From an uncultured Acidobacteriota bacterium (lineage in GTDB: Bacteria; Acidobacteriota; Vicinamibacteria; Fen-336), in assembly GCA_963744315.1 (NCBI GenBank), contig CAVUTB010000005.1, positions 190,794 through 254,793 of the forward strand: a DNA stretch of 64,000 nucleotides, given 5' to 3'. A program made the position numbers and the translations under genes. Shown one piece after another: positions 549 to 49,251 of the stretch; the stretch's first letter is position 1, and every line of letters begins with the position of its first letter. Under the pieces are notes generated by a model. The model had not been told where the DNA came from and did no database searches. It was given only the letters and a program-made list of their open reading frames with translations.

Positions 549-595
549 GCGTCCTCCCTGGGATGGTCGGCGGACCGTCTCGAAGAGCGAGATTA

Positions 596-2127: not shown

Positions 2128-2152
2128 GGTCAGGTGGTCCCGCCCGAGGGTA

Positions 2153-2629: not shown

Positions 2630-2641
2630 GGCCCACTTCTC

Positions 2642-3261
2642 CTAGTTCTGGGGGCAGGAGTCTTGTGTGTCTCCGAAGTCCGCGAAGTCGATCTGGAATC
2701 GAGCCGCCGCGGACACACGCTTCTCGGAGATGGTCTTGCCGAACAGGGTCACCTGCGCGGAGACCGTCGAGGATCGTCGTCTGGCTGATGTTGTCGAGCG
2801 GAGGCTCGAGCTTCGCCTGCCGCCTCACGACCTCGATCGGGACTGTCAGCTCGTCGCCGACTCCCACCGAGGCCGCCAGGCTCCCCGTGATCCGGTACGG
2901 CACGTCCACGCCCTCGACGCCGCGGCCGTCGCTGCGCGAGTAGCGGACCTCGTAGCTCTCGAGCTGGACGATCGAGGACGCGCGCCGACGGCCCGTTCGG
3001 GTTCTTGTTCTGCACCGTCATCTCGACGTCGACTTCGTTCTCGCAGACGAACGTGCTGAATTCGCCGTTGCGGACGTCCGAGTCGAGCTGCGCACCCTGG
3101 TTGATCGCGGTGATCACCAGGAGGACCGGTCCTTCGTTGTTCTCGACGTAGTCGGCGCTGCAGCCCGCCATCGCCAGGGCCGCGGCCACCGCCACCACCG
3201 CGCCCAGCGACAGCGCGCCGCCTCTCGAGTTCGCGTCACGACTGAGGTTTCGCAACCACAT
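2642..3261 (-). CDS. hypothetical lipoprotein (frameshifted)
   Basis: ATG 15 nt after the pilQ stop. MWLRNLS...LAMAGCSAD lipobox. Reading has to be stitched across three frames (parts appear in the 2749..4677 and 2622..2909 track ORFs). Ends at TAG about 2642. Confidence 0.45.
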
Positions 3262-3275
3262 GGCTCTTGTCACCC

Positions 3276-5716
3276 TTAGGACTTGACGATGCGCGGCGTA
3301 ATGAAGAGCAGCAGCTCGTTGTTCGCGTTCTGCGTGCCCTTGCGCCGGAACAGGTAGCCGAGCAGCGGGATGTTGCCGAGCACCGGAGTCTTGTCTTCGT
3401 TCACGAACTCCTGGCTCTGGTAGATGCCGCCCACGACGGCGGTCTGGCCGTCCTTGACGAGGACGATGGTCTTGGCGGCCTGGGTGTTGATCGGCGGAAT
3501 GCCGTTCACCGGGTTGCCGAAGTCGGGAGTGCTGTTCTCGACCTCGAGCGTCAGGATCACGGTGCCGGCGTCGGTGATCTGCGGCGTCACCTTGAGCGTG
3601 AGCACCGCGTCCTTGAACTGCGTGGTCACGGTGTTGTTGGCCACCGTCTGGATCGGGATCTGGACGCCCTGCTTGATCTCGGCCGGCTGGTTGTTCTGCG
3701 TAGTGACCTTCGGCGTCGAGAGCAGGCGGCCGCGGCCCTGCTGCTCGAGCGCCGTCAACGCGACGTCCAGGTTGAAGCTGCCGAGCACGTTGCCCATCGA
3801 GATGCCGATCGCGCTGTTGAAGTTCGAGGCCGGCAGGTTCACGGCGTAGCCGCGGCCGGACTGGCCGATGCCGGTGTCGGACGCGACGCCACCCGGGCCG
3901 AGGTTGTCGGCGGCGAGGCCCCCCTCGCCCGGCACGCCGCCGCCGTTCAGCACGATCTGGTTCGGGAACACCTGGTTCGTGGTGTTGCCGTAGCGGTTGC
4001 TCTTCTCGGCGCCGAAGCCCCACTGGATGCCGAAGTCGCGCGAGAAGTTCCGGTTCGTCACGACGATGCGCGCCTCGATCTCGACCTGCGGCGTCGCCGT
4101 GTCGAGCTCGGCCATCAGGCCCTTCGCCTTCTCGACGAAGGTCGGCAGGTCGCGGATGATGATCGTGTTGGTGCGCTCGTCGATGTTGATCTGGCCGCGC
4201 GCCGAGAGCGCCCCCGCCTGCTTGAGGACGGTCGAGAGCGTTCCGGCCTTGGCGTAGGAGATGCGCCGCGTGTAGTCCGTGAGCTCGCCCGCGAGCGCCT
4301 TCTCCTCGTCGAGCTTGCGGCGGTCGGCCTCCTCGCTTCTGGAGGTCGCTGAGCCGCGCGATGCGGATCACGTTGTCCTCGAGCACGCAGCCGAGGCCGT
4401 TCGTCTTCAGGATCAGCTCGAGCGCGCGTCCCCAGGGCACCTCGTTCAGCTTGAGCGTCACCTTGCCGGTCACGCCGGGGTTCACGACGACGTTCAGGCC
4501 CGAGATGTCCGAGAAGAGCCGGAAGATGTCCTGCAGGTCGCCGTCCTTGAAGTCGAGGCTGATCGGAGTGCCGAGGTCGCCCGTCTGACCGCAGGCCTGG
4601 CCGATGTTGCCCTGCTCCGGAGCGGCCGCGTCGGCCGTGGCGGGCGCCGCCGCCTGCGGCTCGGGCAGCGCCGGCATCGCGAGCGGCTCGATCGAGACCG
4701 GGCGCGACGGGGTCGAGTCGACCGCCGCCGCCGCCGCGACCTTCGTCGTGCGGCTCGGGCTCCGAGGCGCGCATGGCGGCGAGCGGCGCGTGCGCGGCCG
4801 GCTCGGCGCTTTCGCCGAACACGATGCGCACGCCGTCGGCGCCGTCGATGATCCGATAGGGCGACTTCGCGCTCAGGTCGACGACCAGGCGCGCGACCTT
4901 CGGCGTTTGCGCGCTGAACTGTCCGAGCCGCACCTGGCGCACCGGGGTCTGGCCGACCTCGAGCTGCCGCATCGGCGCGCGCGCGCTGACGTCGGCGAAG
5001 TCGACCACGAGCCGCTCCGGGTTCGCGAGCAGGAAGTCCTTGTACTTGAGGCGGCCGTCGGCCTTGACCGTGAAGGCCACGAGCGCGCCCATCTCGTCCC
5101 GCGTCACCGCGGTGATGCGCGTGGCCTTGGGGCCGTTCGGCAGCGGCTCGCTCGCGGCGGGCTCGGCGGCTGCCACGACTGCCGGCTGCGGGGCCGGGGC
5201 GGGCGGGGCCGGGGCGGGCGTCGCCGCAGCGGCCTTCGGCCTGGGCGCCTCGACGACGGCCGTCTCGGGCACCGCCGCTGCGGCAGCCGGTGCGGGCGTC
5301 GCGCCGGCCAGGCTCGTCGGCCGCTCGAAGATCAGGTTGAGCGCCTTGTCCTTCGAGAAGATCTGGTACGGGACGAGGCTGGCGAGGCGCACCTCGACAC
5401 GGGCGAGGTTCCTGCCGTCGGCTCTCGCCAGGCTGGTGACCCGGACCGACTCGACCTCCCGCGTGCCGACGTTCACCCGGGCGGGGACCTGCGAAGCGTC
5501 CACCTCGGGGATGTCGACCACGAGCGTCAGCGGGTCGGGACTGTAGTAGGTGTAGGCGAGTGGACCGGTGCACTGCACCACGAGTCGCGTCGACCGGTCA
5601 CTGCTCTCCTGGCGGATGTCGGTGATTGCTGTGGTTGCCGCCTGCTGCGCGGGCACACCCGCGGCCGACGCGAGGGCAACCGCAAACAGGCCGACCCCAG
5701 CGAGCTTCGCTCTCAT
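3276..5716 (-). CDS. pilQ: type IV pilus secretin PilQ (two apparent 1-nt frameshifts)
   Basis: Signal peptide; two AMIN domains (TDIRQESSDRSTRLVVQCTGPL..., ITAVTRDEMGALVAFTVKADGRL...); Ala/Pro linker; secretin N domains (GQTGDLGTPISLDFKDGDLQDIFRLFSDISGLNVVVNP...); and secretin C domain (track ORF 3276..4115: ...LLGYLFRRKGTQNANNELLLFITPRIV). Frame changes near 4750 and near 4335; stitched translation is continuous PilQ of about 810 aa. Confidence 0.85.
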
Positions 5717-6282
5717 TACCTCGCCTCCTCCGACGCATACAGACTCTTGCGAACCTCTCGCGTCTTGACCGGCGAGAGTGGATCCGTCACCTCTTGCCGG
5801 AAGGTCACCGAGGTCGCGTCCACGGCGGTGATGACACCGTCGTAGAGCCGCTGCCCCGTAGTCACGAAGTACGACTTGCCGTCCGCTCCGAGGAACATCG
5901 CGATGTGGCCGGCCCGGCCGGCGATTCCGATGCCGCTGCCGGTGGTCCTCACGATGCCCTTGAGCGCGATCTCCTGGATCAGAAAGCCTTCCATTCCCGG
6001 CTTGCGCGTCTTCGGCCCGCGGTCGGCCGCTACCGGCCGCTGCAGGCTCACGAACGGATCGCGCCGTCCGCCCGAGTTGTAGGCGTAGCCGCCGGTCTCC
6101 AGCTCGACGTCGAGCGGCGGCCGGTTCGCGTCCGCAGTGCCGGGCGCCGCCTCGGTCGTCCCGGGCGCCGCCTCGGTCGGCGGCGTCGCCGGGGGCGCGG
6201 CCGGCTGCTGCGCGTAGGCCGTCGCCGCGAACGCCGAGGCCAGGACGAAGGCCAGCGCCGCGGCTTGGAAACGGGCCTTCAT
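5716..6282 (-). CDS. pilP: type IV pilus assembly protein PilP
   Basis: Internal ATG of track ORF 5716..6900. MKARFQAAALAFVLASAFAATAYAQQ signal peptide; conserved RDPFVSLQ motif; C-terminal beta domain. TAATG overlap with the pilQ start. Confidence 0.75.
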   Translation of the reverse strand: MKARFQAAALAFVLASAFAATAYAQQPAAPPATPPTEAAPGTTEAAPGTADANRPPLDVELETGGYAYNSGGRRDPFVSLQRPVAADRGPKTRKPGMEGFLIQEIALKGIVRTTGSGIGIAGRAGHIAMFLGADGKSYFVTTGQRLYDGVITAVDATSVTFRQEVTDPLSPVKTREVRKSLYASEEAR

Positions 6283-6900
6283 CGTGCCCCTCCGGGTCCC
6301 GGCCGCTTGGGCGCCGGCCGCCCCTGGCGGCGGCACCGCGCTCTCCAGGTAGACGTACGTGGTCGCGGTGGCTCCGACCGAGATCGTGTTGTTGAGCGTC
6401 TGGTTTTGCTGCGACTTGATCTTGAGGTCGGACATGTTCACGAGCCGCGACATGCGGCTCACCCGGTCGAGGAACGCCCCCATGTTGTGGTAGGTGCCCT
6501 CGAGGTCGATCGCGACCGGGACCTCCTGGTAGAAGTCCTTCTGCACGACCACCGCCGGGTTGAAGCGCCGGATCTGCAGGCTCGACTGCGCCGCCAGGTA
6601 CTGGATGCGCCGCATCAGGTCGGGCATCTCCTTCTCCGGGGGCAGGATCCGCTTCAGCGTCTCGAGGCGGGCCTCGAGCGCCTGGACTTCGCGCTGGAAC
6701 TCCGGCAGCCGGTTGGCCGTCGCCTCGAGCGCGCGGATCTGCTTCTGGAGGTCGGCGAGCCGCGCTTCCTTCTGGCGCTGCTGCTCGAGGGCATCGGCGT
6801 ACCAGAAGTAGTAGAAGCCGCCGCAGATGAGCGCCGCGATCACGGCAGAGACGCCCAGCTGTCCTGCGAGGGGGAGTCGCGTGAGAGCGTTGTCAGCCAT
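6283..6900 (-). CDS. pilO: type IV pilus assembly protein PilO (no in-frame stop before pilP)
   Basis: N-terminal TM helix, coiled-coil (LADLQKQIRALEATANRLPEFQREVQALEARLETLKR) and PilO core. The frame reads straight into pilP; the stop is probably lost to an indel, or this is a genuine fusion. Confidence 0.75.
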
Positions 6901-6915
6901 CTCGGTCTCCCTCCT

Positions 6916-7569
6916 TTACCTGCCGGGCGGCCCAGGCCGCGCAGCTGCGGCGGCTTGGGCGGCCGCGGCCTTCGCTTCGGCGATCGCCTTTTCCTTGGCG
7001 GCGACCTCCGGGTCCTTGAAGTTGCCGCTCAGGGTGAAGTTCACGATGTTCTGCGTCTCCTGTGCCGTGGCGAGGTCGACGGTCGGGAACCAGCCGCTGC
7101 GCTGGAGCGCGCTGATGTAGTCGGCGACCGCTGCCAGGCTGTTGCTCTGGCCCCCGAACTTCAGGTTTCCCTGCGTCTCGTCGAGCGTGCCGAGCCACAC
7201 GTAGTCGGGCAGCGCCTTGGAGATCTCGTCCAGCATGTGCACCGGGCTCTTCTGCAGCAGCCGCAGCTGCTCGATCACGAGCACCTTGTTCTCGAGAATC
7301 GCCTTCTTCTGCTGGAACTGCGCGACCTGCTGTGCGATCGCCTGCAGGTCGCGCATGCGCTTCTCGTCGGCCACGATGCGCGTGTCGAGGTCCCGGAGCT
7401 TGTTCGACTGCAGCCACCAGGCGCCGGCGCAGAGCACGAGCGCGCCGCCCACGAGCAGCGCGAGCAGCAGGTAGCTCTGCAGCGCGCCCGGCGGCATCGC
7501 GGGCCCGGAGGCGGCCTTCGTCTTGGTCTTGGTCGCCCGCTCGGGAGCGACCAGGTTGATGCGGATCAT
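6916..7569 (-). CDS. pilN: type IV pilus assembly protein PilN
   Basis: 217 aa. MIRINL start typical of PilN, one TM helix, coiled-coil, periplasmic domain. Confidence 0.85.
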   Translation of the reverse strand: MIRINLVAPERATKTKTKAASGPAMPPGALQSYLLLALLVGGALVLCAGAWWLQSNKLRDLDTRIVADEKRMRDLQAIAQQVAQFQQKKAILENKVLVIEQLRLLQKSPVHMLDEISKALPDYVWLGTLDETQGNLKFGGQSNSLAAVADYISALQRSGWFPTVDLATAQETQNIVNFTLSGNFKDPEVAAKEKAIAEAKAAAAQAAAAARPGPPGR

Positions 7570-8633
7570 CGGTCACCCAGCCTTCGCACGGCCAGACCCA
7601 CGGCGATCGCCGCCGAGGGCCCGATGTCTTCGAGGTAGTCCGGGTTGAACTCCTTCTCGTTGTAGCGCACGTTCAGGAAGGGGTTCAGCAGCTCGACCGA
7701 GGTAGAGAAACGGTCCGCGAGCAGGTCACGCAGCCCGTGGATCTTGGCCGTGCCGCCGGAAAGAAAGATCTGGTCGATCCGGTCTTCCTGGCTCGTCGCG
7801 CGGAAGAAGTCGAACGTCTTCTGGATCTCCATCGCGACGTTCTCGGAAACCGCCTGGAGGATCGGGTGCAGGCTGTCGGGCGACGCGCCCTCGACCTGCT
7901 CCCCTTTCTTGAGCGCCTCGGCCTGCTCGAACGACAGGTTCAGGTCCTTCTGGATGGCGTCGGTGTACTGGTTGCCGCCCGCCGCGATGTCGCGGTTGAA
8001 GACCGAGACGCCGCCCTTCACCACGTTCACGTTCATGATCGACGCGCCGATGTTCAGGAGCGCCACGACCCGCCCCGGGTCGATGCCGTAGTTCATCTCG
8101 TAGCAGTTCTGGAGCGCGAACACGTCCACGTCCACGATCGTGGGCGTGCGGCCCGCCTGGGTCAGCGCCGACGTGTACTCGCTGATCTTGTCCTTCTTGA
8201 CCGCGACCAGCAGCACGTCCATGTTGCCGCCCGAGCCGCCGCCCTCGATCACCTCGTAGTCGAGCGAGACGTCCTGGATGTCGAACGGGATGTACTGCTC
8301 GGCTTCCCAGTGGATCGACTCCGAGAGCTCCTCGGCGCTCATCTGCGGCAGGCTGATCTTCTTGACGATGACCGCGTTTCCCGAGACGCCGGTCGCGCAC
8401 TCGGCCGTCTTGATCCGGCTCTCCTGGAACACCCGCTGGATCGAGTCGATGACGGCGCCGGCGTCCATGATCGCCCCGTCGACGATCGCCTCGGGAGGCA
8501 GCGACTCGATCCCGATGTTCAAGAGCTGGAACTCGTCACCGCCCTTGCCGCCGACCTTGATCTCCACGGCCTTCACGGCCGACGAGCCAATGTCGACGCC
8601 AACCAGTGACTTCTTCTTACCGAAAAGGCCCAC
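7566..8633 (-). CDS. pilM: type IV pilus assembly ATPase-fold protein PilM
   Basis: 355 aa, actin-like/FtsA fold. MGLFGKKKSLVGVDIGSSAVKAVEI... GTG start with GGAGA RBS. 4-nt overlap with pilN. Confidence 0.9.
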   Translation of the reverse strand: MGLFGKKKSLVGVDIGSSAVKAVEIKVGGKGGDEFQLLNIGIESLPPEAIVDGAIMDAGAVIDSIQRVFQESRIKTAECATGVSGNAVIVKKISLPQMSAEELSESIHWEAEQYIPFDIQDVSLDYEVIEGGGSGGNMDVLLVAVKKDKISEYTSALTQAGRTPTIVDVDVFALQNCYEMNYGIDPGRVVALLNIGASIMNVNVVKGGVSVFNRDIAAGGNQYTDAIQKDLNLSFEQAEALKKGEQVEGASPDSLHPILQAVSENVAMEIQKTFDFFRATSQEDRIDQIFLSGGTAKIHGLRDLLADRFSTSVELLNPFLNVRYNEKEFNPDYLEDIGPSAAIAVGLAVRRLGDR

Positions 8634-8763
8634 GGGCGTCTCCTCTACTGACCGTTCTCAATCCGACTGCGCCCTTTGCGTCCGCGGCCGACCTCGTCTT
8701 GCGTCTTCCTATCAGAACTCAATTTCGGTCCACACTTACCAAGAACAGTTAAAGTCCCGGGTG

Positions 8764-8792
8764 AAGCTAACAGACAGCCACCACCCTGTCAA
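8764..8792 (-). promoter_or_regulatory. candidate sigma70-type promoter of the pilMNOPQ operon
   Basis: On the minus strand: TTGACA, a spacer of about 17 nt, then TAGCTT. It lies in a locally AT-richer leader about 130 nt upstream of the pilM GTG. Confidence 0.3.
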
Positions 8793-9019
8793 GCGTAAAT
8801 TGAAGGATCTGCACGTAAACCCCTGACAGGACTGGACGGCTGGCCAACGCGCGATGTCCCGTCTCCGCTCAGATCCAGCGGCCTCCCTCCGAGCCGTCCA
8901 TTAACCACCTTTTGCACGGAAAGAGGCAGTGTCGGTAGTCACAGCGGGGTCCTGCCAGCCGACAAACACGACCCGCACACTCGAGCAGCGTCTAGAAGCC
9001 AACACAGAGGCCACCCGTT

Positions 9020-9230
9020 CACGGGGGGGTCTGGGGGGCGAAGCCCCCCAGAACAAGGAAAGACGACACCAGCCGAGCCGCTCGGTCACCTAGCTCCATA
9101 GAACTTGAGGAGCCGAAGGGCAACGAGCGACTAGATCAACGGAAACGGATACGGCGGGAGAACCGGAAAAGGCGCGACGGCCGGGACTGAGCTTCGGGGG
9201 CGCTACTCGCCCCCCGAACCCCCCGAGGGC
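9020..9230. repeat. REP-like composite intergenic repeat, copy A (modules M1 and M2)
   Basis: M1 is GGGGGGGTCTGGGGGGCGAAGCCCCCCAGAACAAGGAAAG (7-bp G/C stem, GAA loop). M2 is AACGGAAACGGATACGG ... GGGACTGAGCTTCGGGGGCGCTACTCGCCCCCCGAACCCCCCGAGGG. Related copies occur at 15321, 17425, 19142, 33150, 43044 and 49183. Confidence 0.6.
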
Positions 9231-10200
9231 GTAGAACCGAATCACCACGTCCGGGCTGGGCTCGGCGTGGATCGTGTCGATGAAACGGACCTGGTGCGGG
9301 TCCGTCGTCATCACGAGGCACTCCGTCCGGATGCCGTCGCGGAAGAAGCGGACCGCCTTCAGCAGCGGCCCCTCCGTCACGCCACCGGCGGCGAAGATGA
9401 TGCTCTTCCCGGGGGCCAGGTCCTCCGTCCGGTAGACGCGCTCGAGGTCGGAGATCCCCATGCGTCGCATGCGGTCCGCATCGGCCGGGCGCGTCATCAC
9501 GAGCCGGCCCTGGATCTCGCCGTTGAGGCAGCGCATGGCGGCCGCGGTCAGCACGCCCTCGGGTGCGCCGCCGATCCCCATCACCGCGTGGACGCCGGTG
9601 CCGAGCACGGCGACCGAGATGCCCGCCGAGAGGTCGCCGTCCCCGATCAGCCGGATCCGCGCGCCGGCCTTCCGGATGTCGGCGATCAGCGTCTCGTGGC
9701 GCGGGCGGTCGAGCACCACGACCACCAGGTCGTCGACGTCGCGGTTGAGCGCCCGCGCCAGCGCCTTCAGGTTGTCCTCGACCGGCGCCGCGATGTCGAG
9801 CTGGCCCCGCGCCGGGCCCGGGACCACGAGCTTGTCCATGTAGATGTCCGGCGCGTGGAGCAGCCCGCCCCGCTCGGCCGCCGCGAGCACGGCGATCGCT
9901 CCCGGCGCGCCCGTGGCGCACAGGTTCGTGCCCTCGAGCGGGTCGACGGCGATGTCGACCGCGGGGCCGGTTCCGGTGCCGACGCGCTCGCCGATGTAGA
10001 GCATCGGCGCCTCGTCGCGCTCGCCCTCGCCGATCACGATGGTGCCGTCGATGTCGACGGTCTCCATCTCGTGGCGCATGGCCTCGACCGCGACGCCGTC
10101 CGAGCCCTTGCGGTCCCCGCGGCCCATGGTGCGGGCCGAAGTCGATCGCGGCGCGCTCAACGACCCTGACGAACTCGAGGGGCAGGTCGGCCGGAATCAT
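9090..10200 (-). CDS. glpX: fructose-1,6-bisphosphatase class II (GlpX), frameshifted
   Basis: N-terminus [18 protein letters not shown] (frame of 9136..10200), then ...[17 protein letters not shown]...[15 protein letters not shown]...[19 protein letters not shown] (frame of 9090..10160). 3' end uncertain because the reading runs into repeat copy A. Confidence 0.75.
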
Positions 10201-10256
10201 GGCGCACCTCCGAGAGGGCAGCGGGGCATGATACTGCGGCCCCCCGTGGCGCCGGG

Positions 10257-11459
10257 CTAGTCGCGATACGGCGGCAGCTCGATGCGGCGCGGCTTGTCCT
10301 GGCGGTAGCCGAGGGCGTAGTCGGCCTGCATCAGCTTGTGGACCTCGCGGCTGCCTTCGTAGATGACGGCCGCCTTGCAGTTACGGTAGAAGCGGCCGAC
10401 CGGGTACTCGTCCGAGTAGCCGTTGGCGCCGTGGATCTGCACCGCGTCGCCCGCGGCCCGCTCGCTCGCCACGGTCGCGAACCACTTCGCAAGCGAGGTC
10501 TCGCGCGTGTTGCGCAGGCCCTTGTTCTTCAGGTAGCCCGCGCGCAGCCAGAGCAGCCGCGCCGCGTCGTAGTCGGAGACCATCTGCGCGATCATCTCCT
10601 TCACGAGCTGGTGCTGGCCGATCGGCACGCCGAAGGTCTTGCGCCCCTGGGCGTAGCGGACCGAGGCATCCAGGCAGGCGCGGATCAGGCCGGTTGCGCC
10701 GGAGGCCACCGTGTAGCGCCCGTTCTCGAGCGCGAACATCGCGACCTTGAAGCCCTCGCCCTCCTCGCCCACGCGGTTCTCCACCGGCACCTCGACGTCC
10801 TGCATCGAGAAGCCGCCGGTGTTGCCGGCGAGGATGCCCCACTTCTCCTTGATCGTGAAGGAGCTGAAGCCCTTGAAGCCGCGCTCGACGATGAAGGCCG
10901 ACATGCCCGAGTGGTCGCGCTGCTTCTTCTTCTCCTGGTCCGTCCAGGCGATGACCAGGAAGTTGTCGGCGACGTCGGCGAGGCTGATCCACATCTTCTC
11001 GCCGTTCAGCACGTAGCGGTCGCCCTTGCGGACCGCCGTCGACTGGATGCCGACGGCGTCCGAGCCCGCGTTCGGCTCGGTGAGCCCGTAGGTCGCGATC
11101 TTCTCGCCCTTCGCCTGCGGCACCAGGTACTTCTTCTTCTGCGCGTCGGTGCCCCAGCACCAGAGCGTCATCGAGTTGAGGCCGACGTGGACCGACATGA
11201 TCACGCGCAGGTGGGTGTCGACGTACTCGAGCTCCTCGCAGGCGAGCCCGAGGCTCAGGTAGTCCATGCCGGCGCCGCCCCACTCCTCCGGGATGCAGAT
11301 CCCCAGCAGCTGGAGCTCGCCCATGCCCTTCAGGAAGTCGCGGTTGAAGCGGTGCGCACGGTCGAGGTCGTGGATCTGCGGCTGGACTTCCTTCCCCGCC
11401 CACTCGCGGACCGTCTCGACGAGCGCCTTGTGCTCCTCACCCAGCTCCAGCTCGATCAT
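10257..11459 (-). CDS. acyl-CoA dehydrogenase
   Basis: 400 aa intact. ACAD N/M/C domains ([11 protein letters not shown]..., ...[12 protein letters not shown]). Confidence 0.9.
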
Positions 11460-11725
11460 GGCTCCTCGCTGTACGCGTCTTCCGGCAGCTCGCGGCGCTC
11501 CTGCAGCACGCGCCGCGCCTCGTCAGCCTGCTCCGCCTTCACCAGCACGCGCACCACGGCGAAGCTGCGCACGAGCGGCAGCGGCTCCTGCCTGTAGCTC
11601 TGGTCGATCACCCGGGGCTCGATTCCGGCCTCGCGCAGGCGCAGCGCCGCCAGCTCCGCTTCGAACACCTGGTTCGCCTCGAGCACCACGTCCCAGTCGC
11701 CGTGCGAGGGTTGCCCTTCGCTCAC
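11456..11725 (-). CDS. small DUF2007-like protein
   Basis: About 89 aa, the tail of track ORF 11456..12550 (VSEGQPSHGDWDVVLEANQVFEAELAALRLREAGIEPRVIDQSY...VVRVLVKAEQADEARRVLQE). GTG start overlaps the hydratase TGA (GTGA); its stop overlaps the ACAD ATG (ATGA). Confidence 0.5.
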   Translation of the reverse strand: MSEGQPSHGDWDVVLEANQVFEAELAALRLREAGIEPRVIDQSYRQEPLPLVRSFAVVRVLVKAEQADEARRVLQERRELPEDAYSEEP

Positions 11726-12550
11726 CGGTCCTTCCAGACCGGCTTGCGCTTCTCGGCCACGGCTCGCAGGCCCTCTTCGACGTCCTGGGTCGCGAGCAGC
11801 TGGTTGAGGTAGACGTCCTCGGCGTGGCGGACGGCCTCCTCGTACGACATGTCCTGGCCGCCCACGATCGCGCGGCGCGCGAGCTGCACGATCGGCGCGC
11901 TCGACTCCTGGAATCGCTGCACCAGCGCGGCCACCTCGGCGTCCATGCGGTCGTCGGGGACGGCGCGCGTGATGAGCCCGATGCGCTCGGCGTCGGCCGC
12001 CGTGAGGCTCGTGCCCATCATCAGGAGCTCGAAGGCGCGCTTCCTGCCCACGATGCGCGGCAGGAGCGCCGCCGCCACGGTGTTGAAGACGCCGCCGCGG
12101 ATCTCGGGGTGCCCCAGCTTGGCGCTCTGGGCCGCGAGCACCATGTCGCAGCCCGCGGCCAGGATGCAGCCGGCGCCCAGCGCGGGCCCCCCGACCACCG
12201 CGAGCGTCGCCTTGTCGAGCTTGCCGATCGCTCTCGAAGATGCGCCGGAAGCACTCGAGCATCATGTAGCCGCGGTCGCCGAGGTGGTCCGTGAGCTCGA
12301 AGCCGGCCGAGAAGTACTTGCCGGTCGCGAACAGGGTCACCAGCTTGACGTCCCGCTGGTACTCGAGCGACTCGATCGCGGTCGCCAGCTCCTGCATCAT
12401 GTCGACCGACAGCACGTTCGCGGGCGGCCGGTTGAGCGTGATGCGCGTGATGCCCTGGGCGCTGTCGACGAGAATGTTCTTGAAGGTCGGCGTGCTGACC
12501 GAAGCGAAGACGTCCTGGTCGTGGGGGTCTTCGTCGTACTGGTCGGCCAT
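11722..12550 (-). CDS. enoyl-CoA hydratase/isomerase (one frameshift near 12238)
   Basis: N-terminal half in 11456..12550 (ITLNRPPANVLS...YFSAGFEL), C-terminal half in 11722..12198 (VVGGPALGAGCILAAGCDM...). Removing one extra base restores the ...IFESIGKLDKATLAVVGGPA reading. Confidence 0.8.
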
Positions 12551-12692
12551 CGCGTCTCTTCCTTCCGCCGGCGCTTCCGCGTCGCCTCCGGCCTCTGGCG
12601 CCGTGCGTCGCGACCAAGCCCCTGACTCAAGGGGCTTTCGCAGCGCAGGATTCTAGCATGGGCCGCTCTCGCCTCCGGGCCTGTCCTGTCGC

Positions 12693-14179
12693 ATGATGGG
12701 CCGCATGGGGCGCCTCGCCGACGTCTACGCGCTGCCGCTCGCGCTCTTGACCGACCTCTACCAGCTCACGATGGCGGAGGCCTACGAAAGCACGGGCGCG
12801 CGGGCAGAACGAGGCGGTGTTCCACCTCTTCTTCCGCGCGCAACCCGTTCGAGGGCGGCTTCGCGGTGGCCTGCGGCCTCGCGCGCGCCGTCGACTACCT
12901 CGACGAGCTATCGTTTCGGCGACGACGACCTCGCCTACCTCGCGACACTCACCGGCAACGACGGCCAGCCGCTCTTCGAGCCCTCCTTCCTCCGCCAGCT
13001 CGCCGGGATCCGGCTCGGCCTGCGACGTCGACGCCATGCCCGAGGGGACGGTGGTGTTCCCCCACGAGCCGCTGGTGCGCGTGCGCGGTCCGCTGCTGCA
13101 GGCCCAGCTCGTCGAGACGGCTCTGCTCAATTTCGTCAACTTCGAGACGCTGATCGCGACCAAGGCGGCGCGCGTGACGCTCGCCGCGCGCGGCGACGAG
13201 GTGATCGAGTTCGGGCTGCGGCGCGCGCAGGGCGTCGACGGCGGGCTGTCGGCGACGCGCGCGGCCTTCGTGGGCGGCGCCAACGCGACCTCGAACGCGC
13301 TCGCGGGCCGGCTGCTGGGGCTCCCGGTGCGCGGCACCCACGCGCACAGCTGGGTGATGGCCTTCGACGACGAGACCGAGGCCTTCCGGGCCTGGGCCCG
13401 CGCGCAGCCCAACAACGGCGTCTTCCTGGTCGACACCTACGACACGCTCGAAGGCGTTCGCCGCGCCGCGAAGGCCGCGGCTCGAGCTGCAGGCGAGCGG
13501 GCACCGGGCGATCGGGATCCGCCTCGACTCGGGCGACCTCGCCTACCTGAGCATCGAGGCGCGCGCGATCCTCGACGCCGCCGGGCTTCAGTCGGTGAAG
13601 ATCCTCGCGAGCAACGACCTCGACGAGCACCTGATCGCGAGCCTCAAGGAGCAGGGCGCCAGGATCGACGTCGTGGGGCGTGGGGACGCGGCTCGTCACC
13701 GGCGGCGAGCAGGCGGCGCTCGGCGGCGTCTACAAGCTCGGCGCCCTGCGCGAGCCGGGCGGCGCGTGGCGCCACCGCATCAAGGTCTCGGAGCAGGCGG
13801 CCAAGACCTCGAACCCCGGCATCCAGCAGGTGCGGCGCTTCAGCGGGCCGGAAGGCTTCGTCGCGGACGTGATCTACGACGAGGAGAGCGGGATCGGCGA
13901 CGCGCCCGTGGTCGTCGACCCGCTCGACCCCACGCGGCGCAAGCGCATCCCTGCCGGAACGCCGTTCGAGGACCTGCTGGTGCCGGTCGTGCGCGGGGGC
14001 CGCGGCGGTCTACGACACGCCCTCGCTCGCTCGAGAGCCAGCGCCGCGCGCGCGCGCAGGTGCAGAGCCTGCACCCCGGCATCCGCCGCTTCGTGAACCC
14101 GCACCAGTATCCGGTCGGCCTGTCGCTGCCGCTGCACGAGCTCAAGACGCGGCTCGTGCTGGAGGCGAGGGGCCTGTGA
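12693..14179 (+). CDS. pncB: nicotinate phosphoribosyltransferase (about six frameshifts)
   Basis: Stitched fragments: [113 protein letters not shown]. Together they match NAPRTase end to end. Confidence 0.8.
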
Positions 14180-15322
14180 GCCCGACCCGCGTCTATCTCG
14201 ACCACAACGCGACGACGCCGCTCGACCCGGCGGCGCTCGAAGCCATGCTCCCCTACCTGCGCGAGTCCTACGGCAATCCCTCGAGCCTGCACTGGTTCGG
14301 CCAGCGCGCGCGCGCGGCCGTCGAGGAGGCGCGCGAACAGGTCGCGGCGCTCGTCGGAGCCACGGCGCCCGAGATCGTCTTCACGGCCGGCGGCAGCGAG
14401 TCGGACAACATGGCGCTGCGCGGGGCGCTCGCCGTGGCGAGCGGAGCGCGACGCAAGCTGGTGACGACCGCGGTCGAGCACCACGCCGTGCTCAACACCG
14501 CGAAGGCCCTGCGCGACGAAGGCCATCCGGTCGAGATCGCGCGCGTGGGCGAGGACGGGCGGCTCGACCTCGACGACCTGCGCGCGAAGGTCGACGACGC
14601 GACTCGCGTCGTCTCGGTGATGCTCGCCAACAACGAGACCGGCGTGCTGCAGCCGGTCGCCCAGGTCGCGCGCCTGGCTCACGAGCGGGGCGCGCTCGTC
14701 CACTGCGACGCGGTCCAGGGCGCCGGCAAGACGACGCTCGACGTGCGCGCGCTCGACGTCGACCTGCTGACGCTGTCGGCGCACAAGCTCTACGGCCCGA
14801 AGGGCACGGGCTGCCTCTACGTGCGGCGCGGGACGAAGATGGCGCCGCTCGTGCGCGGCGGGGCGCAGGAGCGCAACCGCCGCGCCGGCACCGAGAACGT
14901 CGCCGGGCATCGTCGGCTTCGGCGCCGCCGCGGCGCGCGCGCGGCAGGCGCTCGCGTCGGAGGCGCCCCGGATCGCCGCGCTCCGCGACCGGCTCGAGCT
15001 CGCCCTGCTCGAGGTGCCCGGCGCGCGGCGAAACGGGGCCGAGCCCCGCGTCGCCAACACGGCCAACGTCTCCTTCGAGGGGATCGACGCCGAGGCGCTC
15101 CTGATCGCGCTCGACCTCGAGGGCGTCGCGGCGTCGACCGGCGCCGCCTGCGCCGCGGGCGGCATCGAGCCTTCGCACGTCCTGAAGGCGATGGGGTTCT
15201 CCGCCGAACGCGTCCAGAGCTCGCTCCGGCTGTCGCTGGGACGAGGAACGACGCAAGAAGAGATCGACCGCGCCGCCGAGGTCATCGCCGTGGCCGTCGA
15301 ACGACAACGGCGCAAGACGTAA
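14176..15322 (+). CDS. iscS: cysteine desulfurase (NifS/IscS-like), one frameshift near 14905
   Basis: Class V aminotransferase. PLP lysine in [11 protein letters not shown]-terminal segment (track ORF 15014..15322) carries the active-site region [15 protein letters not shown]. Confidence 0.85.
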
Positions 15323-15403
15323 CGGACAGGCAGACAACGGACACGACAAGCCGCGGCCTGGACTGAGCAAAGGGGGCGCTCCGCCCCCCCTCAACCCCCC
15401 AGG
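15321..15403. repeat. REP-like repeat, copy B (module M2)
   Basis: AACGGACAGGCAGACAACGGACACGAC...GGCCTGGACTGAGCAAAGGGGGCGCTCCGCCCCCCCTCAACCCCCCAGG. Perfect GGGGGCG-CTC-CGCCCCC hairpin. Lies between convergent iscS and lipA. Confidence 0.6.
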
Positions 15404-16257
15404 TGCGTCTTCCGCGTGGTAGCTCGAGCGGACGAGCGGGCCCGACTCGACGTGCGAGTAGCCGAGGCCGAGGGCGAAGGCGCGCAGCTCCTCGAACTCC
15501 TGCGGCGTGTAGTAGCGCCGCACCGGCAGATGCTGGGGCGACGGGCGCAGGTACTGGCCGATCGTCAGGATCTGCGTGCCGGACGCGCGTATCGCTTCGA
15601 TCGTCTCGCGCAGCTCGGCCGCCTCCTCGCCGAGCCCGACCATGATCCCGCTCTTGGTCAGAAGGCCCTGCTCGCGGGAGCGACGCAGCAGCTCGAGCGA
15701 GCGCTGGAAGCCGGCGCCGGCACGCACCGTGCGGTAGAGGCTCGGCACCGTCTCGACGTTGTGGTTGAGCACGTCGGGGCGTGCGTCGAGCACCACCTGG
15801 AGCGCCTGCCACTGCCCCTTGAAGTCGGGGATCAGCACCTCGACCGCGCAGCCGGGAACGCGCGCGCGGATCTCGGCGATCGTCGCCGCGAAGATCGCGG
15901 CGCCGCCGTCCTTCTGGTCGTCGCGGTTGACCGACGTCACGACCGCGTGGCGCAGGCCCATCCGGGCCACCGCGTCGGCGACGCGCCGAGGCTCGTCCGG
16001 ATCGGGCGGCGCGCCGGGCAGCCCCGTCTTGACGGCGCAGAAGCCGCACGCGCGCGTGCAGACCTCGCCCAGGATCATGAACGTCGCCGTGCCGCGGCTC
16101 CAGCACTCGCCGAGGTTCGGGCAGTGCGCCTCTTCACAGACCGTGTGGAGCTCGAGGCCCCGCATCAGCTCCTTGAGCCGCTCGTATTCGGGTCCCTGCG
16201 GCGCGCGCGCACGGATCCACGACGGGCGCGGCAGCAGCGGGATGGGAACGCCTGCGC

Positions 16258-16261: not shown

Positions 16262-16710
<449 letters not shown>

Positions 16711-17422: not shown

Positions 17423-17424
17423 CG

Positions 17425-17516
17425 CCCCGGGGGGCTGGGGGGCGGATGCGCCCCCCGATGGCTCGTCCAGAGTGTCTGCTAGCTGTTCGTGTCCGTTTGT
17501 CCGTTGTCCGTCGTCC
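17425..17516. repeat. REP-like repeat, copy C (M2, reverse orientation, diverged)
   Basis: GGGGGGCGGATGCGCCCCCC hairpin followed by GTCCGTT heptad repeats (GTCCGTTTGTCCGTTGTCCGTCGTCC). Lies between the convergent FHA and HNH genes. Confidence 0.5.
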
Positions 17517-17522
17517 AGCCGC

Positions 17523-18640: not shown

Positions 18641-19141
18641 GCTCACAAGATAGGCGGGGCTTCGCGCGCTTCGCGGAAGGACGCAGGGACGCAGCCGCGA
18701 GTGAGAGTCGACGCGCGCGAATCGCGGCGCGACACAGAGCCTCCTGGGGCATCGGCCCGCGTCAGGACTGGGCTTCGGGGCCGCATCAGGCAAGTCGGGA
18801 AAGGGCGCGCTCGAATCTTGTCAAGGGCCAGCGGAAGAAAATCTCGCGAGAGGACCCAACAAAAAGGCGCTGCACGCGCGGCTCGGCCACGGTCAGACGA
18901 ACACGCTCGCGCCAAGCACGTCCGCGCAAGCCTCGATCGACGCTCAAGCATCGACGGCCGCCACTCCCGCCAGAAACCGAACTCCGTCCGGGACGAGTTG
19001 GCGCCGCCGGCGCGGCGAGCCGTCGAAGTCGAAGCTGTCGATTCTTCAAGAACCGCTTGGACGAGCAGCCGAACCTCGCGCCGGTCTCGACTCCTCAAGA
19101 ACCGCCTTCGAAGAGGAACGAACCGCCGGGCCTGCTGCCTC

Positions 19142-19183
19142 CTTCCTTGTTCTGGGGGCGCTCCGCACCCCCAGGCCCCCCGG
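19142..19183. repeat. REP-like repeat, copy D (M1, reverse orientation)
   Basis: CTTCCTTGTTCTGGGGGCGCTCCGCACCCCCAGGCCCCCCGG is the reverse complement of the M1 consensus. Lies in the divergent HNH/mnmA region. Confidence 0.5.
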
Positions 19184-19210
19184 AATGGCTGCGGCCTATA
19201 CTGAAAGGCA

Positions 19211-32004: not shown

Positions 32005-33149
32005 GTGAGCATGGGCTTTGCGACCGACTGCATCCACGCCGGCCAGCAGCCGGATCCCACGACGGGGGCCGTGAGCGTCCCCATCTACCAGACCTCGACC
32101 TACGTCCAGCAGGGGATCGGCCAGCACAAGGGCTACGAGTACGCGCGGACGCAGAACCTCACGCGGCGCTCGCTCGAGAAGAACCTCGCGGCGCTCGAGG
32201 GCGGCCTCGACGCCTACTGCTACGCCTCGGGGATGGCCGCGACCCACGCCGTGCTGACGCTCGTCAAGGCGGGCGGCCGCGTCGTGGTGTGCGACAACGT
32301 CTACGGCGGCACCCACCGGCTCTTCACCAAGATCCTCTCGGGCTACAACGTCGAGTTCGCGTTCATCGACGCGACCGACGCCGCGGCCTTCGCGGCCGAG
32401 GCCGGCACGCTTCGACATGCTCTGGCTCGAGACGCCCACCAACCCGATGATGAAGATCTGCGACATCCGGGCGCTCGCCGAGGTCGCGCACAAGCAGGGA
32501 GCGATCCTGGTCGTCGACAACACCTTCATGAGCCCGTTCTTCCAGAAGCCGCTCGCGCTCGGGGCGGACATCGTCGTGCACTCGACCACGAAGTTCCTGA
32601 ACGGGCACTCGGACAGCGTGGGCGGTGTCGCGATCGTGAAGAGCGAGAAGCACGCCCAGTGGCTGCAGTACGTGCAGAACGCGATCGGCGCGATCCTGTC
32701 GCCGTTCGACTCCTGGCTCACGCTGCGCGGCACCAAGACGCTCCACATGCGGATGCCGCGCCACGAGGAGAACACCTGCCAGGTGGCGCCCTTCCTGTAC
32801 AACCACAAGAAGGTCGAGCGGGTGCTGTGGCCGGGCTTCCCCGACCACCCCGGCCACCAGGTGCACAAGCACCAGGCGACCGGTTTCGGCGCGCTCGTCT
32901 CGTTCGACCTCGGCAGCCTGGAGGCCGCGAAGAAGGCGCTCTGCGCGCGTGCGGCTGTGCTCGCTCGGCGAGAGCCTCGGCGGGGTGGAGACGCTCATCT
33001 CGCACCCGGCGACGATGACCCACGCGGGCTACACGCAGGAGGAGCGCGAGGGGCTCGGGATCACGAACGGCCTGGTCCGGATCAGCGTGGGCTGCGAGGA
33101 CGCCGAGGACCTCGTGAAGGACCTCGAGCACGCCCTGTCGGTGCTCTAG
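32005..33149 (+). CDS. Cys/Met-metabolism PLP enzyme (cystathionine gamma-synthase/beta-lyase family), two frameshifts
   Basis: PLP-lysine region [15 protein letters not shown]. Conserved blocks [29 protein letters not shown]-terminus in 32949..33149 ([20 protein letters not shown]...). Confidence 0.8.
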
Positions 33150-33250
33150 GGGGTCTGGGGGGCGAAGCCCTCCAGAACAAGAGAAAGCCCTGTTTCGTCC
33201 CCCTGCGAGAGTGGTCATTGGAGAGCAACGGACCTCCAATGTCCTCGCCC
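33150..33250. repeat. REP-like repeat, copy E (M1 plus degenerate tail)
   Basis: GGGGGTCTGGGGGGCGAAGCCCTCCAGAACAAGAGAAAG immediately after the lyase stop, between the convergent lyase and cutA genes. Confidence 0.5.
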
Positions 33251-42089: not shown

Positions 42090-42990
42090 ATGCGCCTCGA
42101 CCTGCTGCTGATCCGCCGCCATCCCGAGATGTCGCGCCGCAAGGCGCAGGACGTGATCGAGAAGGGCCAGGTGAGCGTCTCCGGCGAGCGCGTCCGCGAG
42201 CCCGGCCGCGACGTGCCGGAGACGGCGGCCGTCACGTTCGACCCGAACCGGAAGGCGCTGCCGAAGGCGCGCTCGACGCTCCCCGTCCTCCACGAGGACG
42301 AGCACGTGATCGTCGTGGACAAGCCGGCGGGGCTGCTGAGCGTCCCCTCGGCGCCCGGGCTCCACGAGGACACCGTGCTCGCGCGCGTGCAGGACTACGC
42401 GCGCCGCCTCAAGCCGCACGCCGGCTATGCCGAGCGCGTGCACCGGCTCGATCGCGACACCACGGGCGCCCTCGCCTTTGCGCTCTCGCGCGACGCCCGC
42501 GCGGGGCTGATCGAGGCCTTCCGCGCCCATCGCATCGAGCGGCGCTACCTGGCGATCGTCGAGGGCCTGCCCGAGGGCGAGCGCGGAACGATCGACGCGC
42601 CCGTTCGCGAGGCGTGGGTCTCCGGCCGTCGCGGCGTCGCGGGCCCCGGAGAGGCCGCGCGCCCCGCGCGCACGCGCTGGGTGCTGCGCGAGCGGCTCCC
42701 CGGCGCTGCGCTCCTCGAGGTCGAGCTCGAGACCGGCCGTCAGCACCAGGTGCGCGCGCACCTCGCCCACGCGGGCCTGCCGATCCTCGGCGATCCCGTG
42801 TACGGGCGTCCCGCGCACGGCCGCCCGCTCGCGCGGCGGCCGATGCTCCACGCCGCCGAGCTCGCCTTCGCGCACCCGATCACGGGCGCGCGCGTACACG
42901 TCAGGAGCCCGTTGCCCTCCGACTTCGAGAGCGTGCTCGCCGCGCTCCGCAAGGGCCGCCTCGCGCCAGCGACCGAAAGCCCCCCAGAGG
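42090..42990 (+). CDS. RluA-family pseudouridine synthase (RluD/RluC-like); 3' end approximate
   Basis: S4-like N-terminus, catalytic HRLDRDTTGALAFAL. The frame reads on through repeat copy F to 43211, which is probably an artefactual extension. Confidence 0.75.
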
Positions 42991-43185
42991 GGAGCTCCAG
43001 GGGGCAGCTCGACGGGGGCAGCTCAGACAGACAGGGGGAGCTCGAGGGGGCGAAGCCCCCTCGTCTCAAAGAAGGAAGAAGCGAGCCTAGCCGTTCTGTC
43101 CCTCTCGAAGATGGCTCTTGGAGAGTCGACGAGCAGGACGGCTGGAGAATCGACGAGCCGGCCTGTGGAGAGTCGACGCGGGGGG
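42975..43185. repeat. REP-like repeat, copy F (M1-like hairpin plus a 3 x 23-bp tandem array)
   Basis: GGGGAGCTC/GGGGGCAGCTC iterations, then GAGGGGGCGAAGCCCCCTCGTCTCAAAGAAGGAAGAAG. At 43115..43183 there are three 23-bp units, each containing TGGAGA(G/A)TCGACG. Confidence 0.5.
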
Positions 43186-49172: not shown

Positions 49173-49182
49173 TCAGCGGGCT

Positions 49183-49251
49183 CGGGTGCTCAAACCCCCC
49201 GAAGCTCAGTCCAGGCCGTCCTGACCTGTTGTCCGTTTCCGTTGTCCGTCC
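49183..49251. repeat. REP-like repeat, copy G (M2, reverse orientation, truncated)
   Basis: Reverse complement reads GGACGGACAACGGAAACGGACAACAGG...GGCCTGGACTGAGCTTCGGGGGGTTTGAGCACCC. Lies between the convergent ferredoxin and HTH genes. Confidence 0.45.

Follow-up and report, generated by a model that had tools for sequence, protein, structure and literature searches.

What occupies the spacer between glpX and pilM in the 64,000 nucleotides analysed here (contig CAVUTB010000005.1 of an uncultured bacterium of the acidobacterial class Vicinamibacteria; hereafter the window)? A reading of the sequence alone had described there a composite of two GC-rich hairpin modules, M1 and M2, and had proposed that it belongs to a dispersed family of intergenic elements at gene 3' ends, resembling repetitive extragenic palindromic (REP) sequences. 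Inspection of the sequence found what had been described at all seven of the loci named, and the proposed family is borne out both in the window and in related loci. We consider it on balance probable that its members are previously undescribed, non-autonomous mobile intergenic repeats, comparable to REPs and bacterial interspersed mosaic elements (BIMEs) and in particular to REPINs (REP doublets forming hairpins).

The hairpin family and its anatomy

The window has a G+C content of 70.7%, and in such a genome similarity between intergenic sequences could come from GC-rich low complexity and chance. A generic repeat finder run on the window was indeed swamped by chance GC-rich matches, and some short motifs searched with three mismatches were found about as often as expected (18 against 14.7; 6 against 4.8). 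The generic finder was replaced by self-BLAST, a covariance model for M1 built from 42 copies and a purpose-written core finder. Eight cores were found in the window, four M1 and four M2 (a to h in Table 1; self-BLAST E 1e-8 to 7e-3, covariance model E 2.5e-11 to 8e-3). In the self-BLAST, 33149-33181 pairs with 9025-9057 (33 nt, 97%, E 1e-8), 19143-19181 with 9060-9024 (E 0.002), 49196-49220 with 9200-9176 (E 5e-4) and 15354-15400 with 9178-9224 (E 0.007). The motif CCAGAACAAGGAAAG, allowed up to three mismatches, occurs five times against 0.43 expected, and runs of G6 or C6 are rare, 23 in the whole window, with 13 of them inside elements. The covariance model recovers all four M1 units, those of copies f and g at 33136-33203(+) (E 5e-7) and 43023-43092(+) (E 8e-3), and weakly matches two M2 hairpins in the opposite orientation, at 17417-17478(+) and at copy b. 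These results, with the matches in genomes and metagenomes described next, rule out a low-complexity artefact: hundreds of copies with conserved, non-repetitive flanks in related genomes leave chance resemblance hardly credible.

An exact 21-base M1 pattern (GGGGNCTGGGGG-N5-14-CCAGAACAAG) matched 52 loci in GTDB contigs representing one genome per species, 38 of them in metagenome-assembled genomes (MAGs) of Acidobacteriota/Vicinamibacteria, and at least 120 loci in metagenome contigs, nearly all of 68-74% G+C. The similarity is thus not confined to the loci first noticed. Three of the Acidobacteriota MAGs gave 9-11 matches each, though the pattern is strict, and in the 38 genome loci the covariance model found 47 full-length units, some of them missed by the pattern. 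Each locus around a pattern match, designated by L and a number, was fetched together with at most about 14 kb of flanking sequence. In 158 loci, which amount to about 1.02 Mb, the core finder identified 241 cores, 167 of M1 type, 22 of M2 type and 52 of other types. The nearest relatives of the window are 'MFD' MAGs. L033 and L048 (contig CAVRVE010000010.1, MAG MFD02242.bin.2.9) are 95-96% identical to window 3562-11558 and 31365-39396, and the orthologous elements are kept in both; the window thus derives from a close relative of that uncultured bacterium. The family is characteristic of Vicinamibacteria-class Acidobacteriota, and its carriers include CAVRVE01, CAVUFF01, CAVSPR01 and DATBSL01.

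A hairpin of the form GGGGTCTGGGGGC-N3-4-GCCCCCAGAACAAG with an AACAAGG flank also occurs in Actinomycetota (L039 about 4360-4389, L040 4469-4498, L052 2207-2236; further copies in L013, L025 and L003/L011). In three genomes of that phylum it lies about 50 nt downstream of genes for tRNA-Ala(CGC), tRNA-Gly(GCC) and tRNA-Ile/Ala(TGC); it is also present in intergenic repeats of two Streptomyces species, and in an Acidimicrobiales MAG it forms tandem arrays with a period of 89 nt. This recurrence may reflect horizontal spread, a shared recognising enzyme or convergence. In an Rfam scan of the window tRNA-Ala was the sole match above the gathering score, with no match to an element, and permissive scans gave only sub-threshold chance matches in 8800-9300 (the best 22 bits against a cut-off of 58.6 bits) and nothing at the elements of six other loci. 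Identity with an Rfam family, including Acido-1, Acido-Lenti-1 and the HEARO/IscB RNA, was rejected for want of a match; a weak match to Clostridiales-2 fell far below its cut-off. A search of the literature found no dispersed repeat family described for Vicinamibacteria, and queries with sequence strings matched unrelated papers only.

M1 and M2 had been taken for two hairpin modules. They are instead one core, a G-run followed by a GC hairpin, in opposite orientations, and form the inverted ends of a composite of about 200 bp. The core spans some 45-50 nt and comprises a tag of 4-8 nt, a run of five to seven G, a spacer of 2-4 nt and a G/C hairpin of 9-12 bp; the strand on which the G-run comes first is named R here and its complement F. 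Tags are TTCAC or CCCAC for M1 and YAGC or CATGC for M2. When the flanks of 233 cores are aligned, one of these precedes the G-run, and only some M2 subtypes have TAGC directly on it. The base of the hairpin, CTGGGGGG/CCCCCCAG, is almost fixed, and the variation at its apex consists of compensatory changes. On its other strand the M2 hairpin follows the M1 design, with its G5-7 run, 2-4 nt and a hairpin whose 5' arm carries G6, as in GGGGGG-TTC-GGGGGGCG... at 9224-9193(-) and GGGGGG-CT-GGGGGGCG... at 17429(+). The sole difference between M1 and M2 is the inner flank of the hairpin.

The M1 stem, described earlier as 7 bp, measures 10 bp (TCTGGGGGGC/GCCCCCCAGA), and the whole M1 unit is about 110 nt long, with CTTGRAGAGYC as its end motif. 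The M1 inner flank reads AACAAGGAARG, then a variable segment (often GCCGTTC, CCCCT), then CTTGRAGAGYC(AC). In most of the 42 aligned M1 copies the end motif lies some 60-90 nt beyond the hairpin, and it is sometimes in tandem (window 43110-43180, L018, L022). The M2 inner flank consists of GCTCAGTCCAGGCC, which we call the B-module, followed by 2-12 GTCCGTT heptads, and 27 distinct copies of it were found in the fetched loci. Inverted pairs of cores with their G-runs outward, 160-400 nt apart and mostly 160-320, are present at 40 loci, very often as M1 with M2, and window 9023-9224 (202 nt) is an M1+M2 composite of exactly this layout. Predicted folding of 9005-9240 as a single strand forms the hairpins at both ends and seals the element by pairing G7 at one end with C6 at the other (-105 kcal/mol, z -3.7). 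The composite of about 200 bp is the full element, and isolated copies of M1 or M2 are half-elements or solo units. As a separate observation, L173 holds at about 1480-1634 four tandem 37-nt copies of part of a core (CTTCGATCRGCCGGGGGTGCTCGAGGGGGCGGAGCGC) ahead of a complete one, which shows that cores can also amplify locally as tandem arrays.

The stems fold at -8.4 to -13.2 kcal/mol as DNA in seven of the eight window copies, copy h being degenerate. In 41 distinct copies the proportion of stem cells that pair is 91.6%, compared with 84.5% after column shuffling, and changes on both sides of the stem occupy 38 cells where 13 are expected, a number reached in none of 500 shuffles. Sliding the partner columns lowers pairing to 41-61%. 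Basal stem pairs are fixed by the search pattern and so uninformative; the covariation evidence is that of the apical pairs, among them pair 31-39, which is CG in 12 copies, UA in nine, AU in eight and GC in five. The hairpin is under selection. Stem mismatches show no asymmetry between G:T and A:C (22 against 14), and the stem is therefore kept Watson-Crick on both strands; a strand-specific RNA function, which would be visible as wobble bias, was rejected on the same count. Together with the absence of an orientation bias in tandem spacers (see below), this fits a hairpin whose function is independent of strand or is exerted by the DNA itself. The A-module, which is the rest of the M1 unit beyond its core, folds no better than its shuffles (mean -26.1 against -25.1), so that its conservation is one of sequence motifs and not of structure.

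Position beside genes and turnover between relatives

Genes in the fetched loci were called with a codon log-odds model trained on those loci. Of the cores, 60 lie between convergent, 98 between tandem and 13 between divergent genes; spacers of at least 40 nt number 58, 241 and 95 in the same order, so that cores are enriched between convergent genes and depleted between divergent ones. In the window, five of the seven loci had been placed between convergent genes, and this holds on a gene map based on Pfam, for those at 15321, 17425, 33136, 42975 and 49175. In tandem spacers the two orientations are equally frequent (46 R-sense, 52 F-sense). In 106 cores a same-sense stop codon lies within 100 nt of the G-run side, which faces it, the median distance being 15 nt; in 49 cores the G-run side faces a gene start.

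The stop codons beside the cores are unusual. Where a stop is followed by a same-sense core (n = 94), it is TAG in 64%, TAA in 16% and TGA in 20%; in control genes with a downstream spacer of at least 20 nt and no core (n = 277) the figures are 38%, 8% and 55%. TAG or TAA thus makes up 80% against 45% (odds ratio 4.7, p = 5e-9). A check that does not depend on gene calls gives a peak of TAG 10-14 nt before the G-run, with TGA flat. Several M2 subtypes place TAG or TAA 1-8 nt from the G-run, as in gcTAGcGGGGGG, and the M2 tag is itself YAGC; for M1, the separation of TAG and G-run ranges over 0-35 nt. The stop at the sufB locus, TAG or TAA, is conserved whichever core abuts it and is therefore not simply part of the element. 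The bias may come from an insertion preference for TA-containing sites, or it may come from selection against UGA before a strong hairpin. REPs with a GTAG tag are reported often to supply TAG stops to flanking open reading frames (ORFs) (Di Nocera et al. 2013, PMC3733652).

At 95-96% identity, between the window and L033, L048 and L065, the elements are conserved. Elsewhere related genomes differ at the same locus. L166 is without exactly 51 nt (CTTCCTTGTT, the hairpin, CCCCCC and a 9-nt tag) that are present in L006 and L113, and retains the adjacent A-module. The composite upstream of sufB reads M1(R)...M2(F) in L044 and is inverted in L160 and L094, whose flanks are 92-94% identical, and L008 has only M1 at this place; in the inverted composites each core retains its own tag, TTCAC-G6 or CATGC-G6. 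L018 carries a second, inverted M1 and tandem GTGGCTCCTCAAG repeats, none of which is present in its orthologue L042, and L110 has an M1 between glpX and the gene upstream of it, where the window and L033 hold only a solo G-run. Core loss, gain and loss of modules and inversion of a whole composite between relatives, each involving discrete units, indicate that the elements are mobile or unstable. At the sufB locus (L008, L044, L094, L160) no consistent target duplication was seen: a possible GTCAA repeat is found in L160 and not in L044 or L094.

The solo G-run near glpX, at window 10240-10257(-), consists of a tag and run (TAG-cccggcgccac-GGGGGG) with no hairpin, between the stop of the upstream gene and the glpX start, and is likewise found in L033. 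It may be a deletion remnant or an empty site.

Proposed mobile repeats and the alternatives

If the elements are mobile repeats of the REP and REPIN kind, a nuclease or transposase encoded elsewhere and acting in trans would recognise the folded core in the form of single-stranded DNA and would copy or move both cores and composites; the likeliest candidate is an HUH/Y1 enzyme of the RAYT (REP-associated tyrosine transposase) or TIRYT type. After insertion, the elements would be co-transcribed into 3' untranslated regions, where the very stable hairpin probably forms a barrier at the mRNA 3' end by blocking 3'-5' exonucleases, as REPs do, and perhaps a pause site. The likeness to REPs, BIMEs and REPINs is extensive. 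The elements are short GC-rich imperfect palindromes in many copies, strictly extragenic, biased towards 3' ends and convergent spacers and scarce in divergent ones; they form inverted pairs and BIME-like mosaics with other short motifs, and their stems show compensatory changes. Copies also lie so near to genes that they touch stop codons, which recalls the report that GTAG REPs donate TAG stops (PMC3733652).

Some features weigh against this account or set the elements apart. The GTAG/CGTC tag of classical REPs is absent, a G5-7 run and a subtype-specific tag of 4-8 nt preceding the stem instead. The composites measure 160-320 bp, and their spacers of 100-250 nt, filled with conserved inner modules (A, B and heptads), are much longer than the short spacers of REPINs. 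The ends of the elements are placed only approximately, and no target-site signature was seen at them. The TAG/TAA bias needs an extra assumption, either target preference or selection against UGA, and the role at the RNA level is one that we purely infer. The host, too, is different, being of the Vicinamibacteria (Acidobacteriota), and no RAYT is linked to the elements: a tblastn search with IS200, IS608 and YafM sequences, which is a weak test, found no Y1 transposase in the roughly 1 Mb of flanks. A 1.45-kb insertion beside M1 in L150 was considered as a transposase gene and rejected, since it encodes a membrane protein.

A lead from the literature nevertheless points to Y1 enzymes within the same phylum. 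Acidobacterial Y1 genes of the TIRYT type are reported to form a distinct group and to be flanked by long terminal inverted repeats (TIRs) with a GGGGWSAS motif, and some TIR families to be dispersed as singles, dimers and clusters in the manner of REPs (Di Nocera et al. 2013, PMC3733652). The elements described here resemble such TIRtrons in their phylum and in inverted-repeat termini that begin with a G-run, GGGGTCTG as compared with GGGGWSAS. However, the motif is off by one position, no TIRYT gene was seen beside the cores, and the published TIRYT examples come not from Vicinamibacteria but from Acidobacteriia (Koribacter, Terriglobus, Granulicella, Acidobacterium) (PMC3733652).

Could the cores instead be RNA signals of the 3' end, whether U-tract-independent terminators, processing sites or exonuclease blocks, that the host selects and that spread by duplication and not as selfish mobile DNA? 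The short median distance from stop codons, the richness between convergent genes, the covarying stems and the GGGGTCTGGGGGC..GCCCCCAGAACAAG hairpins downstream of tRNA genes in Actinomycetota would all suit this explanation, as would the number of hairpin-plus-T terminators in window 1-20000, which at 10 shows no enrichment over shuffles (6.7 +/- 2.8). We nevertheless regard it as unlikely, since orientation in tandem spacers is random, 13 cores lie in divergent spacers, 49 turn their G-run side towards a gene start, long non-structural flanks (A-module, B-module, heptads) are conserved between copies, and close relatives differ in presence, modules and orientation at the same locus. Nor has either strand a 3' U-tract. 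Like intrinsic terminators and REP stabilisers, the elements offer a GC hairpin of very high stability (-8 to -13 kcal/mol as DNA) 0-45 nt after a stop, but they differ from intrinsic terminators in having no U-tract after the stem and no preferred orientation. The stem is followed by CCCCCC on one strand and by the A-rich AACAAGGAA on the other; the T-rich sequence of one strand lies 5' of the hairpin, with the C-run 3' of it. A canonical intrinsic terminator was rejected for want of a U-tract and of any enrichment of terminator-like sites, and the suggestion of a bidirectional terminator is not supported. No element hairpin is among the terminator-like sites of window 1-20000. The elements are also non-coding.

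A further explanation makes the composites classical miniature inverted-repeat transposable elements (MITEs) derived from a DDE-type insertion sequence (IS), with the cores as TIRs; a full-length IS elsewhere would mobilise them by cut-and-paste, and a TA-containing target would account for the TAG/TAA bias. Their size of 160-320 bp and inverted termini with outward G-runs are those of a MITE, and both orientations of a whole composite are found at one locus, as from independent insertions. The stop codons fit as well, in that 80% of those next to cores are TAG or TAA while TGA has no positional peak, and TA-targeting in a genome of 71% G+C would mostly strike such stops. Hairpin-ended MITEs such as Correia elements (CREE) of Neisseria, ERIC/IRU (enterobacterial repetitive intergenic consensus/intergenic repeat unit) sequences and the small non-coding repeats of Deinococcus are indeed 100-300 bp long and non-coding, with inverted ends, and lie in either orientation beside genes with which they are co-transcribed. 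Correia elements, however, duplicate a TA target, whereas here no target duplication is visible at the sufB insertions apart from the possible GTCAA of L160. The two ends often belong to different core subtypes with different tags (TTCAC against CATGC), and single cores or modules are gained and lost independently, as in the 51-nt indel. The distance from TAG to the G-run also varies, over 0-35 nt, and no IS with matching ends was noticed in the roughly 1 Mb of loci, the long core pairs inspected holding other genes: ordinary ones in L096 (uvrA-like) and L136 (a secreted protein), and an HNH gene in the window. These points make MITEs distinctly unlikely.

Improbable, to our judgement, is a pair of other possibilities: that the core goes beyond selfish DNA and is a 3' signal specific to stops read by release factor 1 (UAG/UAA), or that the elements are moved by an unrecognised class of enzyme, one candidate being a DUF222-HNH nuclease. 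In the first case, a G-run and very stable hairpin about 15 nt past the stop would be tolerated or useful solely behind UAG and UAA and selected against behind leaky UGA, possibly because a downstream hairpin promotes read-through or stalls termination. Either possibility, if true, would also explain the recurrence of the hairpin in Actinomycetota.

The HNH gene of the window lies between cores e and d, at 17523-18793(-). It belongs to the DUF222+HNH nuclease genes, is frameshifted and has a promoter-like region of its own (TTGACA ... TATCTT-N7-ATG), and an intact orthologue is found in L084 (731-1951), at a different locus among degenerate cores. The family is large, with more than 3159 proteins at E <= 1e-20, multi-copy per genome and at different loci in different genomes. 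Its association with the elements raises the question of whether these are recognition or landing sites for the gene, or its non-autonomous relatives. In the window, L084 and L173 (gene at 2001-3107), an M1-type unit of the same orientation precedes, by some 250-390 nt, a cassette made up of about 250 nt of promoter region and the ORF. The L173 cassette has direct repeats of an M1-like unit on both sides, and in the window the order M1 ... gene ... M2 mirrors the composite without a gene. L106, moreover, has the orthologous composite upstream of mnmA and lacks the gene. Against this, L175 and L176 carry the gene with no core nearby, cores are so common in spacers that chance co-occurrence is expected, the cassette homology ends short of the cores, and only two of about 170 element loci contain the gene. 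HNH/DUF222 proteins are not known as transposases. A role for the elements as sites or relatives of this gene is thus very improbable, and the gene as an autonomous version of the elements was rejected, an M1-type unit being near in only three of five loci and the homology stopping before the cores. In our reading it is a selfish gene in its own right, prone to landing in these repeat-filled spacers, and probably not the transposase of the elements. Pfam and NCBIfam gave only sub-threshold matches for this gene, to DUF222, HNH and IscB-HNH, and an origin of the IscB/TnpB type was rejected for that reason.

Two other candidates were set aside. The GGA-rich strand (ACAAGGA, ACGGA heptads, GGAGAG) might suggest a small RNA gene or a CsrA sponge; there are hundreds of copies in both orientations and no evidence of a promoter or terminator. 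A Shine-Dalgarno reading of AAGGAGG/GAGGAG is inconsistent with the distances to downstream starts (for example in L020 and L044).

Mobile repeats of the REP and REPIN kind would provide, in abundant and poorly studied soil bacteria, a second and independent system for how hairpin repeats spread and act at transcript ends, with G-run plus hairpin and inverted composites as its signature. Whether a target preference or an interplay of stop identity with downstream structure lies behind the 4.7-fold bias towards TAG/TAA can be tested. The elements are also a convenient sequence marker for the lineage in metagenomes. For annotation, the family fills a large share of 3' spacers, and its T-poor, stop-free repeats systematically extend or fuse predicted ORFs, while its G/C homopolymers are weak points for long-read assemblies.

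Copies and neighbouring genes in the window

The elements of the window and the genes that flank the focal composite are listed in Table 1.

Table 1. Positions of the elements in the window and of the genes flanking the composite at 9010-9237
Feature	Position	Strand	Parts or context	Evidence
M1 core a, left end of composite	9010..9079	+	tag CCGTTCAC 9015-9022; G7 run 9023-9029; hairpin TCTGGGGGGC-GAA-GCCCCCCAGA 9030-9052; inner flank ACAAGGAAAG	model 68.1 bits, E 4.6e-11; orthologue L033 5454-5523
A-module (rest of M1 unit)	9080..9139	+	end motif CTTGAGGAGCC at 9104-9114	
S-module	9140..9178	+	degenerate ACGGA(A/C)A heptads, GGA-rich	read from sequence
B-module GGCCGGGACTGAGC	9179..9192	+	inner flank of M2 core	1 mismatch from GGCCTGGACTGAGC
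M2 core b, right end of composite	9193..9237	-	minus strand: tag CGCCCTC; G-run 9224-9219; hairpin TTCGGGGGG-CGAGTAGC-GCCCCCGAA 9218-9193	core finder; weak model match 9174-9237(-); orthologues in L033, L065
pilM	7566-8633	-		Pfam
glpX	9090-10160	-	domain ends at residue 298 of 356	Pfam
glpX end	9231..9236	-	TTC, then TAA in L033, TAG in L065, TAC in the window	alignments and flank list
M2 copy c	15321..15403	-	between iscS-like gene (+) and lipA (-)	core finder; self-BLAST; Pfam neighbours
M2 copy d	17425..17518	+	between FHA gene (+, TAA 17420-17422) and HNH gene (-)	model 16.6 bits; core finder
M1 copy e	19124..19193	-	divergent spacer between HNH cassette (-) and mnmA (+, ATG 19211)	model 69.5 bits, E 2.5e-11
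M1 copy f	33136..33250	+	between Cys/Met pyridoxal-phosphate (PLP) enzyme gene (+) and cutA (-)	model 46.5 bits, E 5e-7; Pfam neighbours
Copy g	42975..43185	+	between rluD-like gene (+) and pilZ (-)	model 24 bits, E 0.008; Pfam neighbours
M2 copy h	49175..49251	+	between ferredoxin-like gene (+, TGA 49170-49172) and MerR gene (-, stop 49252)	

The composite at 9010-9237 lies in a tandem spacer, with glpX followed by pilM. The hairpin of core a has 10 bp and folds at -13.2 kcal/mol as DNA (z -4.4), and that of core b at -12.5 kcal/mol as DNA; on the plus strand the latter reads TTCGGGGGCG-CTACT-CGCCCCCCGAA (9193-9218), followed by CCCCCC at 9219-9224. Its B-module is conserved beside M2 cores in many loci, and the exact form GGCCTGGACTGAGC is found at 15355 and 49204. 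Core b begins 7 nt after the position of the glpX stop, which homology places at 9232-9234. In the window this stop is replaced by TAC, and the glpX ORF continues through the element to 9090, for 48 extra codons.

That several predicted ORFs read into the elements had been noticed before and was seen again, but these ORFs do not show, as was then suggested, that the elements themselves are mis-assembled: the repeats are T-poor and lack stops, and 1-nt indels affect genes of the window. The R strand is almost T-free, so that whole elements are without stop codons in some frames. In L096 an ORF of 1831 aa fuses two uvrA-like genes through an M1, its tail translating the heptads. Single-base breaks in the window include the TAC in glpX and a window-specific extra A at 10139, and the iscS-like gene (14176-15366), mnmA (19185-20477), the Cys/Met PLP enzyme gene (32005-33253) and the HNH gene are split across frames. 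Such a pattern is typical of homopolymer errors in long-read assemblies, and we infer that these breaks are errors of this kind, the alternative being real mutations.

In copy c the heptads start directly after the iscS TAA and are followed by the B-module (15355-15368), the hairpin (15372-15390) and the G-run, a C-run on the plus strand (15395-15400). Copy d has its G-run at 17429-17434, its hairpin at 17437-17456 and its heptads at 17489-17518. In L106 the orthologue of copy e forms the right half of a composite of two M1 units, and the HNH gene is absent. At copy f the TAG of the PLP enzyme gene (33147-33149) abuts the G-run, which starts at 33149; the orthologue is L048 1762-1829. Copy g contains tandem GGGGGCAGCTC motifs, a variant M1 core at 43023-43092 with the hairpin CGAGGGGGC-GAA-GCCCCCTCG and three tandem repeats of TGGAGAGTCGACG type at about 43110-43180; the same core variant flanks the HNH gene in L173. 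Copy h has the tag CAGC, shortened G-runs (GGGCTCGGG), the loop TGCTCAAA, a B-module and heptads, and its hairpin, contrary to the earlier description, is degenerate. Intact versions of its subtype are present in L015, L053, L087, L112 and L161.

Some other features of the window were noted in passing. Upstream of pilM, a low-GC stretch of about 370 nt (8634-9000) has no long ORF and is nearly identical in L033 and L065, exceeding the conservation of the flanking genes; it may be a regulatory region or leader of pilM. In the metagenome contig L106 the mnmA homologue (window 19137-20280) is directly followed by a homologue of window 28465-30325, so that about 8.2 kb (window 20281-28464) are absent there, through insertion or rearrangement. 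A spacer near 40223-40371 contains a near-perfect palindrome of 46 nt, CGTTACTTTTCGTTACTCGTTCCGGAACGAGTAACCGAAGGTAACG (40249-40294; 87% self-complementary, self-BLAST E 1.6e-7), which has more A+T than the sequence around it and no relation to the G-run family. Downstream of tRNA-Ala(GGC), some 560 nt (50336-50900) hold no convincing ORF and no G-run element, with a promoter-like TTGACA...TAATTA at about 50765-50790. Finally, a long imperfect tandem array of 9/12-nt units (TCGTCC/TCCTCG) occupies 16255-16662, upstream of the zinc-ribbon/FHA part of the ORF at 15416-17422 and adjoining the lipA start; it would encode an acidic or serine-rich stretch of low complexity.

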